Positions 18,789-46,384 of a stretch of DNA of 64,000 bases are shown one piece after another (the stretch's first letter is position 1; each line of letters starts with the position of its first letter). Both the position numbers and the translations under genes were made by a program. The stretch comes from Chthoniobacteraceae bacterium (GTDB lineage Bacteria > Verrucomicrobiota > Verrucomicrobiia > Chthoniobacterales > Chthoniobacteraceae): assembly GCA_947471505.1 (NCBI GenBank), contig CANIWM010000012.1, positions 15,867 through 79,866 of the forward strand, written 5' to 3'. The notes beneath the pieces were generated by a model. The model did not search any database, was not told where the DNA came from, and saw nothing but the letters and a program-made list of their open reading frames with translations.

Positions 18789-19222
18789 GGGTTTGTTTGT
18801 TTGTTGTTTTGTGAGGCGCGCCAGCAGGCCCGGAGAGGGCGCTAATCTCGCGCCCGTCCGCTCTAGTCCCCGGTTTTTGGTGGGTCAAGCGAGAATCATC
18901 ACCGCGCACCGCATTTTTCCGCGGGCGATTCTCAGGGTTGCCGCCGCAGCGCCCCGATCCGATCCACCATCCTGGCAACAGTTGTTATCACCCCCCATTT
19001 ACGCCGAAGGCGTTGGGGTTCGGAAGGCTGAACCCTCCGGGTAAGAATCACGCTCATTGAGCGAGATTGGAAATCTCGCCTCCTCTGCGCTCGATTGCGC
19101 GGGCTATCCACATACGGCGGCCCCTCTACTTCACGGCATTTGTCCACTTTACCCTCCCGCTCTCTGTTAGCCGGCCGTGGAACGTCCTTGTTCCACGGAG
19201 AAATGGGCTTTTTCTCTGATGG

Positions 19223-19255
19223 CATATACTCATTCCGTCACAGAATGAGTATATG
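19223..19255. promoter_or_regulatory. perfect 13-7-13 palindrome CATATACTCATTC-N7-GAATGAGTATATG (candidate operator)
   Basis: Read directly from the sequence. The half-site GAATGAGT(A/T)T is the core of the downstream direct-repeat array. Confidence 0.5.
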
Positions 19256-19537
19256 CGGGGGCGGAATCTGTTTAATCTGCGAGTGGATGGGTTTAGGGCA
19301 GGATGGAATCTGCTTTGGCTGCGGCAGGATGAGTTTAACCTGCGAGGGGATGAGTTTAGGGCGGGATGAAATCTGTTTTGGCTGCGACAGGATGAGTTTA
19401 GAATCCGACGGAATCCATTTAGCCGCCAATCGAATGAGTTTAGGAAACGAGGGAATGAATTACGGAGGGAAACTCATGGGTATATTTTGCAACGGAATGA
19501 ACTGCATTTCCGGCGGAATGGGTTGTAAAGTAGTGCG
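19256..19537. repeat. array of about 13 degenerate direct repeats with ~21-bp period (core GGATGAGTTTAGG / GAATGNNTTTA)
   Basis: Includes two 63-bp higher-order copies at about 90% identity (19277-19339 and 19340-19402), each made of three 21-bp subunits. Located in an ~890-bp intergenic region between divergent genes. Confidence 0.7.
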
Positions 19538-19608
19538 AATAGTAGCGGGGCCGTCTCGGCCCCGAGCGACACTGTGTGTCGCAGGGGGCGGGACGCACCC
19601 TCTACTTC
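19538..19608. repeat. GC-rich multi-hairpin module (AATAGTAGCGGGGCCGTCTCGGCCCC...), copy 1 of 2 in this window
   Basis: Contains the hairpin GGGGCCG-TCT-CGGCCCC and the palindrome GCGAC...GTCGC. Copy 2 at 43958-44043 shares 26 of 27 nt (one extra C in copy 2) over 43958-43984. Confidence 0.6.
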
Positions 19609-19678
19609 CGCGCATTATTTTACCGCTCACCGCGCGCCGAGCGTGCAACGCGCAACTTCTTCCGGTAGGAGGCGGGGC

Positions 19679-20641
19679 ATGAAACTCATCGCGTCCGTCT
19701 TTTTCGCCACGACTTGCCTCGCTACTGCGCTGGATGCGCCCAAGTTTGACCGTAATGGGGCAGGGGAGATCACGGTGGCGGCACCGGAGGGTGCGCACGT
19801 TCGCTATACGATTGATGGGTCTGCGCCGGGGGCGAAATCAGGACCGTATCTCGCGCCTATTCGGCTCGCGACGGGCCGGAAGGTGCAGGCGGTTTCTGTG
19901 AGCGCGGACCGGAAGACGGTGAGCGAGCCCGCTGTGCTGGAGGTCGCGCCTGCGCCGGATGCGAAGCCGCTCCCTTCGACGCTGGTGCCTTGCACGCAGG
20001 ACCGGGATTTCCCCACTTACGATTGGGCGATCCGCCATGCGCAGGTGACGGAACTTACGGCGAAGAAGAAGGCGTCGCTGGTGTTCATCGGCGATAGCAT
20101 CACGCAGATGTTCGGCGGCGAACCGCATGATCGCGGGCAGCCGGGGAAGGCGGTGTGGGAGAAATTCTACGGGGCGCGCAATGCGACGAACTTGGGCTTT
20201 GGCTACGACTACGTGGAGAACACGCTGTGGCGTCTCCAGCACGGCGAGCTGGACGGCGCAGCGGCGAAGGCGGTGGTGGTGAACATCGGGACGAACAACA
20301 TGGGCAAGAATTCGCCGGAGGAAATCTTCGAGGGCGTGAAGGCGGTGCTCGGCGAAGTGCGGCGCAGTCAGCCAGCGGCGAAGGTGCTGCTCCTCGGCAT
20401 CTACCCACGCGGCGCGAAACCCGACGCGACCCGCGAGAAGGTGGCGAAGACCAACGTGCTACTTGCGACGCTCGACGGGAAAGACGGCGTCATTTTCCAA
20501 GATGTGACGGCGAAGCTCTTGGAGCCGGATGGGAGTATCTCGAAGGAGATGATGGGCGACTTTCTGCACCCCACGGCGAAGGGCTATGAGGTCATTGCAG
20601 ACGCGATCGAGCCTACGCTGAAGAAGCTGCTGGGGGAGTAG
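19679..20641 (+). CDS. SGNH/GDSL hydrolase family protein with N-terminal chitobiase/hexosaminidase C-terminal-like (CHB_HEX_C) domain
   Basis: Signal peptide MKLIASVFFATTCLATA, CHB_HEX_C-like stretch (HVRYTIDGSAP), GDSxT block (VFIGDSITQ) and a C-terminal DFLHPT block. Confidence 0.8.
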   Translation: MKLIASVFFATTCLATALDAPKFDRNGAGEITVAAPEGAHVRYTIDGSAPGAKSGPYLAPIRLATGRKVQAVSVSADRKTVSEPAVLEVAPAPDAKPLPSTLVPCTQDRDFPTYDWAIRHAQVTELTAKKKASLVFIGDSITQMFGGEPHDRGQPGKAVWEKFYGARNATNLGFGYDYVENTLWRLQHGELDGAAAKAVVVNIGTNNMGKNSPEEIFEGVKAVLGEVRRSQPAAKVLLLGIYPRGAKPDATREKVAKTNVLLATLDGKDGVIFQDVTAKLLEPDGSISKEMMGDFLHPTAKGYEVIADAIEPTLKKLLGE

Positions 20642-37612: not shown

Positions 37613-38274
37613 GCAGGGCCGCCGCGCCGTTGTCCAGCCATGCGGCGGGAAAACGAACTTCCATGCCAGCGGCGCCCATTATTCGATGGCCCATACGATT
37701 CCGCTTGTAGCTGTGTGCGCGAGGACGATGATTCGCGTTGCCAAAGTCGCGTTTCTTCCACAAGGCGCGACACGGGGGACCCAATTGAGGGTGCGCAGGT
37801 CCAAACTGCCACCAGGGGCGCAGGTAGCCAGCCAAATGGCTGCCCGGTGACTTCCTTCACCGAGCCCGTCAGCTAACTCCGTCGGTATAGGGAAGGTGTC
37901 CTAGGGACGCCGTCCGCGGCACTCGCTGCGTACGGGGTCAACCGATGCCTGCAACATCATATTGCTTACTGGCATCGGCGGAAAAATACGCCGGCGGTGT
38001 CCGTTCGCGCACAGACACATACTACATACAGAAAATGAGACATCATCGTCGTGGCCTGCTTGCCGCAGGCTTCATCATCGCCGCATCCACCGCCGACACC
38101 GTTTGGCTTGCATGGGCACAACCTCAAATCGCTACCGGCCTCGCGCTGGATCAGGTCAACGGCGGAGCGCCTGCGTGGCGCGAGCTTCTCGCGTGGCAGG
38201 CGACTCATCAATGGCCGCACTTTGTTGCGCAGGCCGTTGTCGCTGCCACTATTGCGTGGTGGATTCGTCCTATC

Positions 38275-42130: not shown

Positions 42131-42169
42131 TCCGCGCCGCGAAAGAACCGTTCAGTTCCTTTTCAAAGC

Positions 42170-45100
42170 ATGGCGCATCGCGTGGATTGTCCCGCCATGC
42201 TCCGTCAAACACTCCTCGCCGTCACACTCGTCACAACGTCCGCCCTTGCGCAAAAGGCGGACCCTTTTGCCGAGGGCGTGCGGACTACAGAGCCGCTGGC
42301 ACCTGCTGAGCAGCGGGCGAAATTCAAGCTGCCGCCGGGCTTTGAGATTCAGCTCGTCGCTGCGGAGCCGGATTTGCGCAAGCCGATGAATATGGCCTTC
42401 GACGCCACGGGGCGGCTGTGGGTGTCGGAGTCGCGCGAGTATCCTTTCCCCGCGAAGGAAGGTGCGGAGTTGCGCGATAGCATCCGCATTTTCTCGGACT
42501 TCGGGCCGGATGGCAAAGCGCGGAAGATGGAGGTCTTTGCCGACAAACTGAACATCCCCATCGGGCTCTATCCATTTCGCACGGCGGATGGTCATTGGAA
42601 GTGTGTCGCGTGGGCGATTCCGAATATCTGGCTCCTGGAAGACACCGACGGCGACGGCAAAGCCGACAAACGCGAAGTGCTCTTCGGCCCGCTCGGCTGG
42701 GAGCGCGATACGCACGGCAACCAGGCGAGTTTCCGGCGCGGGGATGACGGGTGGATTTACGCCACGCACGGCTTTAACAACAACTCGATCATCAAAGCGC
42801 GCGACGGCTCCACCATCACGCTCAACAGCGGCAATGTGTATCGCTTCCGCCTCGATGGCTCGCGCGTGGAGCAATGGACCTCGGGGCAGGTCAATCCCTT
42901 CGGACTCTGCTGGGATGATCGCGGCAATTTGTTCTCCGCCGACTGCCACAGCTCGCCGATTTACCAGCTCTTGCGCGGCGGCGTGTATCCCAGCTTTGGC
43001 AAGCCGCACGACGGCCTCGGCTTCGCCCCGCAGACCATCCAGCACTCGCACGGAAGCACCGCGATTTGCGGGCCGATGATGATTCGCGACACGTCGTGGC
43101 CCGCCGATTTGCAGGGCCACATGCTCATTGGAAATGTGATGACCTCCCGGCTCAATCACGACCTCATCGAGTGGCACGGCTCGTCGTCGAAAGGCAAAGA
43201 GATGCCTGATTTCCTCACGAGCGAAGACCCGTGGTTCCGCCCCGTGGACCTGCAATGGGGCCCCGACGGCGCGCTCTACATCGCCGATTTCTATAACCGC
43301 ATCATCGGCCACTACGAAGTCCCGCTCACGCACCCCGGACGCGACCGGGAGCGGGGGAGGATTTGGCGGGTGGTGTATAAAGGGAAAGAGGGGAAAGGCA
43401 CGGCGCAATCCGGCAGCGGCAATATGATATCCGAGGGTATTATTTCTGAATCCGGCGATGCGAATCCTCAATCCGGGGACGTGAATGTTAAACCCGGCAA
43501 CGTGAATGTTAAGTCCGGCAATGCGAATGTTATAAACGGCGCGAATGTCGGTAAACAATGGTATGCGAATGTTAAATCCGGCAATGCGAATATCCAATCC
43601 GGGAACGCCAATATTAAACAGTTGGACGCGAATCCTGAACCCGGCGTGTATAATTTTAAACAGTTGAGCGTGAATATTCAATCCGGCGACTCCACTTCTG
43701 AACCTGAAAACGCTCAATTTGAACCTGAAACCTCTGTCGGTCAGAGAATCATATCGCTCTCGGAAGGCGATATAGGAGCGGGGCTTTCCCAAGCCCCGTA
43801 TGCGCCGAAGGTGCATCCAAAAGCGTCGCCTACTCTGTTGCGGTTCGTTTTAGGGAACCCCTCCGGGGCTCACGGGGCTTTGGAAAGCCCCGCTCCTATA
43901 CGCCCGTCCGGCGAATTGGCGCTGCACCTCATCGCCACGACGCCGGAGCCTGCGCCCAATAGTAGCGGGGCCGTCTCGGCCCCCGACTGCGACCCTGCGG
44001 GTCGCAGTGCTACGAGCCTTGGGGCCGGGACGGCCCCACTACTTTCGCCCTCGATGAGTGTCGCGCTGGCCACTTCGCTGCCGAAGGAGGAACAGATCGC
44101 CGCTTTGATAAAAGAACTCGGCTCGCCGAACCCGACGCGGCGGTCGCTGGCGTTGAATGAATTGTGTGATCGGTGGCCAGACGAAGCGCGAAAAGTGATC
44201 CCAGCGTCGGTTGATGCAGATCCGTTTCAGCGTGCGAATCTACTGTGGGTCATCAACCGCGGGGGACGCAATATGCCTGGTAATACGGGAATTATCGCCA
44301 GACGTGCCGAGCACCCTATGGTCCGCAGCCAGATGTTGCGGGTGGACGCGGAGGCGCTTGCCTCGTGGAAACCGGAACTCAAAAATGCACTCGCAAAAGG
44401 TGCTCCGAAAGAAGAGTGGCAGAAGCTTTCGGGCCTTATCTTTGGAAGACTCTCGGAGCTTCAGCGCGCCTTGGAAGACAGTGACGCAGTCGTTCGCCGG
44501 ATTGCCACGGAAGCACTCGCGATTTACCCGTCAGAAGGAAACTTCCTTCCCCTCCTACGTCTCCTCCGCACAACCGACAAAGCCGACGACCACCTCATCT
44601 ACTCCACCCGCGCCTCGCTGCGCGAGCATCTCCGCGATGCGGAAGTCGTGAAGCAGCTTAAGCTCGACGCTTTTTCCCGCGAAGACCTGCAAGCGATCAT
44701 GGACATCCTCCCCGCCGTCCCCGGCGAACATGCGGCGCTGCTGCGGCTCGACCTTTTTACGAAGCTCGACGCGCCCGCTGCCGAAGTCGCCAAGCACTTT
44801 CCCAGCATCATCAAAAACGCCCCCGCCGACCGGCTCAACGACATCGCCGCGCTGGCGCAAAAGAAGATGCCCGACGATGCCGCCGCGCTCTCCGCGATCC
44901 TCACCGCGCTCGACCAGCGCGGTGTGCCGCCGGGCGATGCGCTCCGCGAATGGGCGGCGGCGCTCGTCCCACGGCTGCTCGCCGCAAAGGCGGGCGGGTG
45001 GTCCATCCGGTCCATAGCGTCCATCCCGTCCACCGAAAACCCCTGGACCCTGCAAGACCGCAAGAGCGCCGATGGCGAAACCGCCCGCCTGATGAGCAGC

Positions 45101-46384
45101 TTCCCCAAAGGCGAAAAGCTCACCGGCATCCTCGCCTCTGCGCCGTTCCTCGCGCCGGAGCGCCTCCGCTTTTACCTCTGCGGCCACGATGGCACTCCGC
45201 CGGGACCGGTGGGCAAAAAGAACAGCGTCCGCCTTGTGGATGCAGCCAGCGGTGCCGTGCTCCGCGAAGCCGCGCCGCCGCGCAACGATGTGGCCCAGCG
45301 CATCGAGTGGGATTTGGCCGACATCAAAGGGCGGTGCGTCCTTTTCGAGGCGACGGATGGCGACCCCGGCAGTGCGTATGCGTGGCTGGCGTTTGGCCGC
45401 TTCAAGCCCGAGTTGCCGGAACTCGCGCTGGGGGAAGCCGCCTCGCAAAAAGCCACCGCCGCCGACATCGCAGGACGCTTCAAACTCACAGCGCGTCACG
45501 ATGCGATCCTAGCGCTGTTCAATGAGCGGACGGCGGACGTGGAATCGCGCGCGGCTGCGGCGCGGGCGCTGATTTCGTTTCAAGATGATGCTGCCGTGAA
45601 AGGGCAAATCGCCACAGCCCTCGCCAGCGCCGACGAGCCCGACGCTCTGCGCGAAAAACTCGCCGTCGCACTCAGCGGCGTCGCCAGCCAAGCCGTCGCC
45701 AATGCGATGCCCTCTGCCTCCACGAAGCTCCAGCAATCTTTCTCTGCCGCGCTTTCTGCAAATCGCGAAGGCACTGTTGCGCTTATCGTTGCAGTCGAGA
45801 GCGGCAAAGCCTCCCCGCTCGTCCTGCGCGACAAAGCGACGGTGGATCGCCTCAAAGCCAACGCGAAAGACGACGAGCTAAAACGCCTCGAAGCCCTGCT
45901 CGCCAAACTCCCGCCCGCGAACATCGAAGCCGACAAACTCATCGCCGCACGCCGCACCGCTTTCACAAAAGGCGACGCCGCGAAAGGCGCGGTCGTTTTC
46001 ACAACGAACTGCGCCGTCTGCCACCAGATCGGGCAGAAGGGCAACCTCGTCGGCCCGCAACTCGACGGCATCGGCGGGCGAGGGCTCGACCGCATTTTGG
46101 AAGACCTCCTCGACCCGAATCGCAACGTGGACCGCGCATTCCGCCTCAGCATCGTCACGCTCAAAGACGGCGGCGTAGCCAGCGGACTCCTGCGCCGCGA
46201 GGAAGGCGGGCAGATGGTCCTCGCCGACATCACCGGAAAGGAAAGCAGCATCCCGCAAGCGAACGTCGCCAAGCGCGAAGAGAGCGACACCTCGCTGATG
46301 CCGCCCGCATTCGGCCAGACGATCCCGCCCGCAGACTTCAACGATCTGCTCGCATACCTGCTCTCACAGCGCCCGACAAAGTAG
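42170..46384 (+). CDS. PVC-type membrane-bound dehydrogenase domain / HEAT-repeat / CxxCH cytochrome c protein (1404 aa) carrying an in-frame repeat-element insertion
   Basis: N-terminal signal, a beta-propeller-like dehydrogenase domain (DATGRLWVSE, GRIWRVVYKG), a central low-complexity insert (43405-44043), HEAT-like repeats, and a C-terminal heme motif CAVCH with conserved downstream Met. Confidence 0.8.
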   Translation: MAHRVDCPAMLRQTLLAVTLVTTSALAQKADPFAEGVRTTEPLAPAEQRAKFKLPPGFEIQLVAAEPDLRKPMNMAFDATGRLWVSESREYPFPAKEGAELRDSIRIFSDFGPDGKARKMEVFADKLNIPIGLYPFRTADGHWKCVAWAIPNIWLLEDTDGDGKADKREVLFGPLGWERDTHGNQASFRRGDDGWIYATHGFNNNSIIKARDGSTITLNSGNVYRFRLDGSRVEQWTSGQVNPFGLCWDDRGNLFSADCHSSPIYQLLRGGVYPSFGKPHDGLGFAPQTIQHSHGSTAICGPMMIRDTSWPADLQGHMLIGNVMTSRLNHDLIEWHGSSSKGKEMPDFLTSEDPWFRPVDLQWGPDGALYIADFYNRIIGHYEVPLTHPGRDRERGRIWRVVYKGKEGKGTAQSGSGNMISEGIISESGDANPQSGDVNVKPGNVNVKSGNANVINGANVGKQWYANVKSGNANIQSGNANIKQLDANPEPGVYNFKQLSVNIQSGDSTSEPENAQFEPETSVGQRIISLSEGDIGAGLSQAPYAPKVHPKASPTLLRFVLGNPSGAHGALESPAPIRPSGELALHLIATTPEPAPNSSGAVSAPDCDPAGRSATSLGAGTAPLLSPSMSVALATSLPKEEQIAALIKELGSPNPTRRSLALNELCDRWPDEARKVIPASVDADPFQRANLLWVINRGGRNMPGNTGIIARRAEHPMVRSQMLRVDAEALASWKPELKNALAKGAPKEEWQKLSGLIFGRLSELQRALEDSDAVVRRIATEALAIYPSEGNFLPLLRLLRTTDKADDHLIYSTRASLREHLRDAEVVKQLKLDAFSREDLQAIMDILPAVPGEHAALLRLDLFTKLDAPAAEVAKHFPSIIKNAPADRLNDIAALAQKKMPDDAAALSAILTALDQRGVPPGDALREWAAALVPRLLAAKAGGWSIRSIASIPSTENPWTLQDRKSADGETARLMSSFPKGEKLTGILASAPFLAPERLRFYLCGHDGTPPGPVGKKNSVRLVDAASGAVLREAAPPRNDVAQRIEWDLADIKGRCVLFEATDGDPGSAYAWLAFGRFKPELPELALGEAASQKATAADIAGRFKLTARHDAILALFNERTADVESRAAAARALISFQDDAAVKGQIATALASADEPDALREKLAVALSGVASQAVANAMPSASTKLQQSFSAALSANREGTVALIVAVESGKASPLVLRDKATVDRLKANAKDDELKRLEALLAKLPPANIEADKLIAARRTAFTKGDAAKGAVVFTTNCAVCHQIGQKGNLVGPQLDGIGGRGLDRILEDLLDPNRNVDRAFRLSIVTLKDGGVASGLLRREEGGQMVLADITGKESSIPQANVAKREESDTSLMPPAFGQTIPPADFNDLLAYLLSQRPTK
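43405..43735. repeat. tandem 21-nt repeats (GAATGTTAAATCCGGCAATGC family) encoding SG(N/D)ANV(K/Q) heptads inside the 42170..46384 CDS
   Basis: About 12 degenerate 21-nt units. Locally AT-rich compared with the flanking sequence. The period is a multiple of 3, so the host reading frame is preserved. Confidence 0.6.
43958..44043. repeat. GC-rich multi-hairpin module, copy 2 of 2 (inside the CDS)
   Basis: AATAGTAGCGGGGCCGTCTCGGCCCC shared with 19538-19563 (26 of 27 nt). Contains hairpins GGGGCCG-TCT-CGGCCCC and GCGACCC-TGC-GGGTCGC. The outer stem is AGTAGCGGGGCCGTC / GACGGCCCCACTACT. Confidence 0.6.

Follow-up and report, generated by a model that had tools for sequence, protein, structure and literature searches.

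In-frame cluster of GTAG-type REP doublets and a 21-nucleotide minisatellite in a hypervariable inter-domain linker of a PVC-type heme-binding protein

Among the described systems that come closest to the locus analysed here, the Rickettsia palindromic elements (RPEs) are single insertions of about 100-150 bp that reportedly enter protein-coding genes in frame and are translated as tolerated extra peptides. The Correia elements of Neisseria, which are abundant and occasionally found inside open reading frames (ORFs), are characterised by 26-bp terminal repeats, duplication of a TA target and an integration host factor (IHF) site. The BOX elements of pneumococcus (boxB, 45 bp) and the mycobacterial interspersed repetitive units (MIRU, 46-101 bp) are modular or tandem small elements, and MIRU can be read in frame. 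The subject of the present analysis is a gene for a PVC-type heme-binding CxxCH protein (positions 42170-46384, + strand) in a 64,000-nucleotide stretch, hereafter the window, of contig CANIWM010000012.1 (Chthoniobacteraceae bacterium, assembly GCA_947471505.1, positions 15,867 to 79,866). The inter-domain linker encoded by this gene is hypervariable and contains an in-frame cluster of repetitive extragenic palindromic sequence (REP) doublets of the GTAG type along with a 21-nt minisatellite. GTAG REPs are highly enriched in a verrucomicrobium, Opitutus terrae, in which intragenic copies are also the most numerous; these intragenic REPs usually encode 20-30 amino acids (aa), and 43-82 aa at most, and degenerate GTAG tags are on record as well (Di Nocera et al. 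2013, PMC3733652). With a probability of roughly 80%, the linker has been colonised by the lineage's own non-autonomous repeats, namely two kinds of GTAG-type REP doublets, which resemble REPINs (mobile units formed by two inverted REPs), and the minisatellite. The type of event is already known from intragenic GTAG REPs; the present instance is unusually long and composite, and both filled and empty sites are documented.

The host protein consists of 1404 aa encoded in an unbroken ORF, with the start codon placed at the Met at 42197 in database gene calls, and has 7974 homologues. Its name comes from NCBIfam (TIGR02604 N-terminal domain; TIGR02603 heme domain, aa 1268-1399). Pfam identifies the beta-propeller domain DUF7133 (aa 45-404) and a C-terminal cytochrome c (aa 1270-1316); the middle part between them is a HEAT-like alpha-solenoid. 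The insert separates the DUF7133 end (...GRIWRVVYKG) from the first HEAT-like helices, and the ORF passes through the repeats without interruption, as stated in an earlier reading made from the letters of the DNA (the sequence-only reading). The linker between RIWRVVY and IKELGS is about 240 aa long in the window protein, compared with typically about 20 aa in homologues (e.g., P0009-P0011, P0020 and L054, the last with the junction …VYRGSNGEAQLLNPALPNDVAG-LLEELGS). In an AlphaFold (AF2) model of residues 1-900, based on a 42-sequence alignment, a confident beta-propeller (58-403) is followed by a confident alpha-solenoid (639-899), and exactly residues 409-625 score below 50 in the predicted local distance difference test (pLDDT), with values of about 25-35 over the heptads encoded by the minisatellite. 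Because the low-confidence segment lies between two confident domains, the repeats appear to occupy a permissive, disordered inter-domain linker. The translated repeat tract of about 220 aa (the tryptic peptides of residues 409-625 include SGNANIQSGNANIK and ASPTLLR) is accordingly a predicted disordered linker, and in annotation this low-complexity stretch should not be taken for a domain. The sequence-only reading assumed a single insertion of about 640 bp; the presence of in-frame repeat sequence, about 650 bp in all, is borne out, but the tract is a mosaic, put together from at least four modules whose histories differ.

Two of these modules are REP doublets. Element I1 (43761-43910, + strand; 150 nt) is palindromic and consists of two inverted REPs of a second type, (A/T)AGGAGCGGGGCTTTCCNAAGCCCC, with 65-nt arms (43761-43825 and 43846-43910), REP hairpins at about 43772-43799 and 43872-43899, and the tag AGGAG, that is, GGAG instead of GTAG; the same doublet is also found in an intergenic position in L034 (2137-2274). 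Element I2 (43956-44048, + strand; 93 nt, or 31 codons) is a GTAG-REP doublet in which the left REP, AGTAGCGGGGCCGTCTCGGCCCC (43961-43983), is followed by an inner hairpin (43989-44005) and an inverted right REP (44021-44043). The two arms, of 23 nt each, are 91% complementary, so that the inverted REPs form one larger hairpin, and their translations read SSGAVSAP and GAGTAPLL. A small inverted repeat, I3 (TCCGGCGAATTGGCGCTG / CATCGCCACGACGCCGGA; 43907-43947, + strand), identified by inverted-repeat search and in alignments, belongs to an older part of the linker that encodes …LHLIATTPE… and is common to the orthologue L001. All four palindromes previously quoted from this region are present, namely GGGGCTTTCCCAAGCCCC (43780-43797), GGGGCTTTGGAAAGCCCC (43874-43891), GGGGCCGTCTCGGCCCC (43967-43983) and GCGACCCTGCGGGTCGC (43989-44005). 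The predicted folding energy of the segment 43741-44060 is -193 kcal/mol (z = -10.9 relative to dinucleotide shuffles); since the minisatellite is less folded than its shuffles (z = +2.7), the high hairpin density is limited to the 3' half of the insert. A species difference in the inner hairpin of I2, which reads ACCC-TGC-GGGT in the window and ACCC-GCA-GGCT in L036 and L026 (alignment A3, columns ~316-340), looks like an inversion of the loop, a signature of hairpin-templated switching.

Units of the I2 type consist of the tag AGTAG, which precedes the stem in every copy, and the hairpin GGGGCC-GTCTC-GGCCCC, whose GC stem of 6 bp encloses a loop of 5 nt, and they form inverted doublets with GTAG outside. 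The same features, namely short GC-rich hairpins with a 6-bp stem, a terminal GTAG and inverted doublets with GTAG outside ('HH' dimers) and spacers of 20-100 nt, define the described GTAG REPs (PMC3733652). A census was performed by scanning a degenerate 23-nt pattern against one genome per species (185,579 species), with only exact-pattern matches counted. The pattern matched 51 stretches, compared with about 1 expected by chance according to a rough estimate, and 49 of the 51 come from six Verrucomicrobiaceae metagenome-assembled genomes (MAGs): GFS_3520 (15 stretches), OTE_70_metabat_418 (13), GFS_12560 (10), GL117_UP_concoct_203 (6), the 'Prosthecobacter debontii' MAG (4) and OTE_58 (1). 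These are fragmentary assemblies, and five of them contribute 4-15 stretches each; the source genome was examined as the 64-kb window alone, which contains two REP loci. Many copies are located at contig ends, as expected of repeats that break assemblies, and most lie outside long ORFs. The stem is perfect in 58 of the 61 REP units and comes in two variants, GGGGCC/GGCCCC (50 units) and GGGGGC/GCCCCC (8 units), which differ by a compensatory swap of C:G to G:C; a one-sided stem change is never observed inside the clade, although the pattern permitted one. The doublets hold one or two variable inner hairpins, and the inverted layout is found in most copies. One subfamily of doublets forms the core of a palindromic element of about 190 nt (L007, L008, L009, L016, L018, L034, L046 and L053) with the terminal inverted repeats CCATCTTCCACAAATAAAGAGACGGGAGAA … TCTCCGC.GTCTCTTTATTTC.GGAAGATG.

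In their distribution, too, these repeats resemble the GTAG REPs of Di Nocera et al. (PMC3733652): they are dispersed, specific to a lineage and for the most part intergenic, a genome holds several families, and some copies are in frame in known genes. They differ in that they represent new sequence families confined to a Verrucomicrobiaceae clade, in that the translated tract is about 220 aa long as opposed to the typical 20-30 aa and the maximum of 43-82 aa, and in the combination of two REP families, one of them tagged GGAG, with a 21-nt minisatellite. The REPIN-RAYT system, in which RAYT denotes a REP-associated tyrosine transposase (Bertels & Rainey 2011, PMC3116915; TnpA-REP, PMC8266576), shares the formation of a larger hairpin by two inverted REPs as a non-autonomous unit, the compensatory conservation in the stems and the high copy number within a lineage; unlike that system, the doublets described here have variable inner spacers with extra hairpins, and some of the copies reside inside the element of about 190 nt that has its own terminal inverted repeats. 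The likeness to RPEs and Correia elements proposed in the sequence-only reading holds for the kind of event, an in-frame insertion, and not for the elements themselves. With RPEs, the locus shares palindromic repeats that are in frame in an ORF at a permissive site and are absent from orthologues (the 93-nt indel relative to L001, see below). Nevertheless, its elements are not members of that family: the tag is GTAG or GGAG, not CGTC (RPE-4 and RPE-6 are of the CGTC type; PMC3733652), the sequences are unrelated, the host lineage is Verrucomicrobiaceae, and the repeats are part of a mosaic with a minisatellite. With Correia elements, the common feature is a small size with inverted-repeat ends; neither the 26-bp repeats nor the TA duplication nor the IHF site was detected at the locus, and the sequences are not similar. 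As in BOX and MIRU, a variable number of short units is located beside hairpin-forming modules, but the unit sizes differ, the sequences are unrelated, and the loci described here share a 21-nt period while mostly not sharing sequence. A metagenome scan with the REP pattern returned one short contig, and viral scans with the REP, I1 and minisatellite patterns yielded zero matches, so that there is no sign of phage origin.

The GTAG tag leaves two of the three reading frames open, and the frames SSGAVSAP and GAGTAPLL are reused by other intragenic copies of the clade, such that REP-derived peptides (SSGAVSAP...GAGTAPLL) recur in unrelated proteins. A second intragenic case in the clade is the PriA helicase gene of MAG GFS_12560 (L025, 3689-5968, - strand), in which an in-frame REP doublet (…VVGASRPHEPQGSSVIDGAGTAPLL…) is located just before Walker A and is flanked on both sides by Pfam PriA and helicase domains; replication and repair genes are likewise among the hosts of the described GTAG REPs (PMC3733652). 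Three MAGs share a single REP unit (…GAETAPLL…) at one position of a conserved ORF of the GH5/CBM type, about 900 aa in length (L024, 1172-1194; L044, 1544-1566; L031, 139-161). These findings extend intragenic GTAG REPs to Verrucomicrobiaceae, with a composite tract in the window that is much longer than those reported earlier.

The second REP locus of the window is an intergenic GTAG-REP doublet (19541-19606, no strand assigned) identified by blastn, pattern matches and folding. The module shared with this locus, already recognised in the sequence-only reading, is confirmed by a blastn match of 43958-44007 to 19538-19584 with 88% identity, and in both copies the left REP, the inner hairpin (GCGACAC/GTGTCGC in the intergenic copy) and the right REP follow one another in the same layout. 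Directly 5' of the intergenic doublet, there is a period-21 array (19210-19510, + strand) of units GTTTAnnnnnnnnnnGGATGA with a super-period of 63, as detected by Tandem Repeats Finder (TRF) and a lag scan. The in-gene and intergenic arrays were considered as copies of one element, an idea that was rejected given that a position weight matrix (PWM) of the in-gene array has no match in the intergenic one and only the period is shared. Interpretation of the intergenic array as a CsrB-like sponge RNA is not supported either: GGA occurs 14 times compared with about 7 expected, and there is no CsrA in the DNA examined. No enrichment of promoter- or terminator-like sites was found in this array. An open frame (19095-19682, + strand) spans the intergenic array together with its neighbouring doublet and ends in an ATGA overlap with the start codon of the downstream gene (ATG at 19680); it may be either a spurious ORF made by the repeats or a read-through arrangement of the MIRU kind.

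Comparison of orthologues at the junction reveals both filled and empty sites and marks the junction as a hotspot. L036 (OTE_70) contains the same array end, I1, I3 and I2, with 91.4% identity over 455 nt, whereas L026 (GL117) has a homologous array and I2 with another sequence in the place of I1. L001 (P0005) has the I3 segment but not I2, together with a period-21 array other than that of the window and a REP of a third GTAG type (AAAGTAGTCAGCGACTT…), the gap relative to the window corresponding exactly to 43956-44048 (93 nt, 31 codons) with a clean junction; this empty site, together with the linker of about 20 aa in most homologues, agrees with the earlier expectation that the insert would be cleanly absent from orthologues. 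In L002 (P0002), whose flanks are 94-95% identical to those of the window, the junction holds one different palindrome of 150 nt with 44-nt arms that starts with GGTAGGGTGGGCGTCCCGCC, and in L055 (P0006) another palindrome, whose ends read AAGGAGCGGCGACATT. Because the modules differ between orthologues, the tract is best described as a mosaic in which modules were gained or lost separately, and because the insert is common to three species-level genomes, part of it having been kept while at least that many diverged, it is not recent. The close orthologues keep a linker of 50-255 aa with the frame open, and sister lineages hold different elements, selfish or neutral repeats written into protein, in the same linker. 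In the orthologue P0008, another variable linker (alignment A1, columns ~1230-1290) is extended in frame by about 65 aa (…GFGVRGLDPALT…SKSGVEPPHSKA…), a second insert that resembles a different translated repeat element.

The same comparison bears on the possibility that the ORF actually represents two genes, with an intergenic spacer or a pseudogene scar between a dehydrogenase gene and a HEAT/cytochrome-c gene, or an assembly chimera. The ATG at 44053, immediately after the last hairpin doublet, could be the start of the second gene, but L002 and L056 have no Met there, so it is not conserved, and it is not preceded by a Shine-Dalgarno-like sequence. Furthermore, homologues of the same architecture are single ORFs of about 1150-1250 aa, and the identical insert is found in three full-length variants (P0001, P0121 and P0124) of the P0001 cluster, which together were found on 8 contigs. 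Given these contigs and the orthologues from two other MAGs (L026 and L036), the join is real and not the assembly artefact that had been named as a potential source of the arrangement. The substitution pattern in the insert, which is of a non-coding kind (see below), would fit a split between two genes, but the probability of an open frame under shuffling is only about 2 in 10,000. Altogether, this explanation appears highly improbable.

The pattern of substitutions, counted as differences at codon positions 1/2/3 between the window and L026 or L036, differs between the insert and its flanks. The end of DUF7133 (2/1/15 relative to L026) and the C-terminal region (98/67/184 relative to L036 and 106/61/213 relative to L026) show an excess at third positions, as opposed to the array (22/21/24 relative to L026), the segment 43701-43955 (11/8/11 relative to L026) and the palindromes (5/9/10 relative to L036). 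There is no detectable selection on the amino acids encoded by the insert, and the conservation of a linker at the amino acid level that would have contradicted the sequence-only reading is not observed. The frame, by contrast with the residues, is under selection. In the frame of the gene, no stop codon interrupts the insert, whereas each of the five alternative frames has 2-15. When the insert was put through 5000 dinucleotide shuffles, a single shuffle was open in the gene frame; for the insert of L001, which is unrelated, 7 of 5000 were. Because the insert is free of stops and shuffled versions rarely are, selection acts on openness alone, that is, on the continued translation of the downstream domains. 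The same segment accordingly combines evolution at the nucleotide level with selection that keeps the frame translatable.

Conceivably, selection maintains the tract as a working spacer or tether; a flexible linker in the periplasm might, for instance, fix how far the heme domain stands from the propeller. The tract would then have grown in place by duplication, with the likeness to repeats being secondary or the result of exaptation. The retention of an open linker of 50-255 aa in all close orthologues and the persistence of the insert through at least three speciation events are compatible with this proposal. Against it, the length of the linker, from about 20 to 255 aa, as well as its sequence are unconstrained, the substitutions are neutral with respect to codon position, its hairpin units can be found unchanged in intergenic REP copies, and orthologues carry differing modules, so that a role of this kind is quite unlikely. 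The palindromes are 91.7% identical to those of L036, compared with 74.6-80.5% for flanking coding DNA, which indicates maintenance at the level of nucleotides or structure, homogenisation with other REP copies or later spread. Given this excess of identity without codon bias, the extreme predicted structure (z = -10.9) and the compensatory covariation in the REP stems, the palindromes could be kept for an RNA or DNA function in the gene, such as stabilisation of the mRNA, a ribosome pause that lets the two domains fold separately, or the binding of a nucleoid protein, of IHF or of gyrase that has been suggested for REPs in other genomes. However, the same pattern would arise if dispersed REP copies had undergone gene conversion or if the palindromes had been acquired later, and the gene requires no single structure given that L026 lacks I1, L001 lacks I2 and L002 lacks both; such a function is, on the whole, unlikely.

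The in-gene minisatellite (43400-43735, + strand) consists of 16 in-register units with the consensus AATgTTAAATCCGGCGAcGCG and the codons N-V-K-S-G-N-A. TRF delineates it at 43449-43618 with a period of 21, and the codon-phase listing shows 16 consecutive units over 43400-43735 with zero indels; the heptads of the SGNANVK type were noticed previously, with the number of units put at about 12. The array has a GC content of 0.44-0.46, compared with 0.70 in the palindromes. A homologous array is found at the same place in L026, and L036 retains it at its start, where the array end is shared; no copy-number polymorphism is seen among the three full-length members of the P0001 cluster. A folded heptad-repeat domain was considered for the encoded segment and rejected in view of the neutrality of substitutions with respect to codon position and the pLDDT of about 25-35. 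The period of 21 had been put forward as the reason why the frame is preserved. As a multiple of 3, it indeed renders the array frame-neutral, and does no more than that: intergenic arrays of the clade also have a period of 21 (see below), which implies that the period is not a product of coding selection. An antisense ORF (42152-43816, - strand; 554 aa) overlaps the host gene and crosses the array in the only other frame that leaves the array open; it is almost certainly spurious.

A scenario of colonisation of the linker by repeats of the lineage can be outlined as follows. The REP doublets would have been mobilised by a single-strand transposase of the RAYT type, as in the case of other GTAG REPs, and, together with the minisatellite, might have landed in, or expanded within, a linker that tolerated them. 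Because the site lies between two independently folding domains, extra residues would be tolerated, and the insert is presumably neutral for the function of the protein. Purifying selection on the HEAT and cytochrome-c domains would purge variants that shift the frame or bear stops, such that only in-frame, stop-free versions survive and are carried as a disordered spacer of about 220 aa. The REP hairpins would evolve by rules of nucleotides and structure (hairpin maintenance, homogenisation or both) and not by those of protein.

Several observations weigh against this scenario. No ORF with HUH and YxxxNP motifs, the hallmarks of a RAYT/Y1 transposase, was detected by motif regular expressions in the 0.46 Mb examined, and tblastn with E. 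coli RayT produced no match in the same 0.46 Mb; the lack of a cognate RAYT gene in this sequence is also a difference from the REPIN-RAYT system. The palindromic elements have terminal inverted repeats, but no clear target-site duplication was found: the sole comparison with an empty site (L001) permits a 5-nt CGCCC and is ambiguous. Read-through of the insert into protein is an inference. The closest relative by flanks, L002, lacks the array, I1 and I2, which are present in more distant genomes, so that either loss and replacement in L002 or recombination has to be invoked. Finally, in the DNA examined, the PWM of the in-gene array detected no further copy of it at any non-orthologous locus, and the case for the array as an inserted element draws on three points, namely its absence from most orthologues, its aberrant GC content and the existence of intergenic period-21 arrays in the clade.

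These period-21 arrays are the sole part of the locus that goes beyond known biology. In a lag-autocorrelation scan of 426 kb of DNA from the Verrucomicrobiaceae group at lags 6 to 69, segments were found at lag 21 (10 segments), 42 (12), 63 (9) and 69 (6), with 0-1 at every other lag. The arrays number about 19, with 7-17 units each, and most lie outside long ORFs; among others, they include, in addition to the one at 19210-19510 in the window, arrays in L034 (2519-2754), L045 (246-542), L017 (1382-1577), L018 (1839-2126), L006 (2851-3199), L020 (420-616), L048 (4643-4868) and L001 (980-1212). All-against-all comparison indicates that the consensus units are mostly unrelated, the orthologous pair being the only clearly related one. 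Nevertheless, 6 of the 8 best matches of a PWM of the intergenic array fall in other arrays, with the junction motif RATGA|STTT shared, and some arrays combine a conserved core of about 11 nt with a variable part of about 10 nt. In L034, L045, L017, L018 and the window (19.2-19.6 kb), the arrays are located 20-200 nt from REP doublets, a proximity that may merely reflect the confinement of both classes of repeats to intergenic space. No literature on 21-bp arrays in Verrucomicrobia was found. It is a tentative and rather doubtful suggestion that the 21-nt array of the host gene is one instance of a clade-wide class of repeats defined by the length of the unit, not by its sequence. If so, these could be phased arrays for protein binding, 21 nt being equivalent to two helical turns, or the products of a repeat-generating mechanism linked to the REP machinery, and one of them would have become trapped in a gene and translated along with it.

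A search of the window against Rfam identified no family at the gathering score in the segments that contain the two REP loci (43300-44100 and 19000-19700). Elsewhere in the window, a c-di-AMP riboswitch (RF00379), with a full-length match at 37729-37902 on the + strand and a score of 48.5 bits, is the sole family that Rfam identifies.

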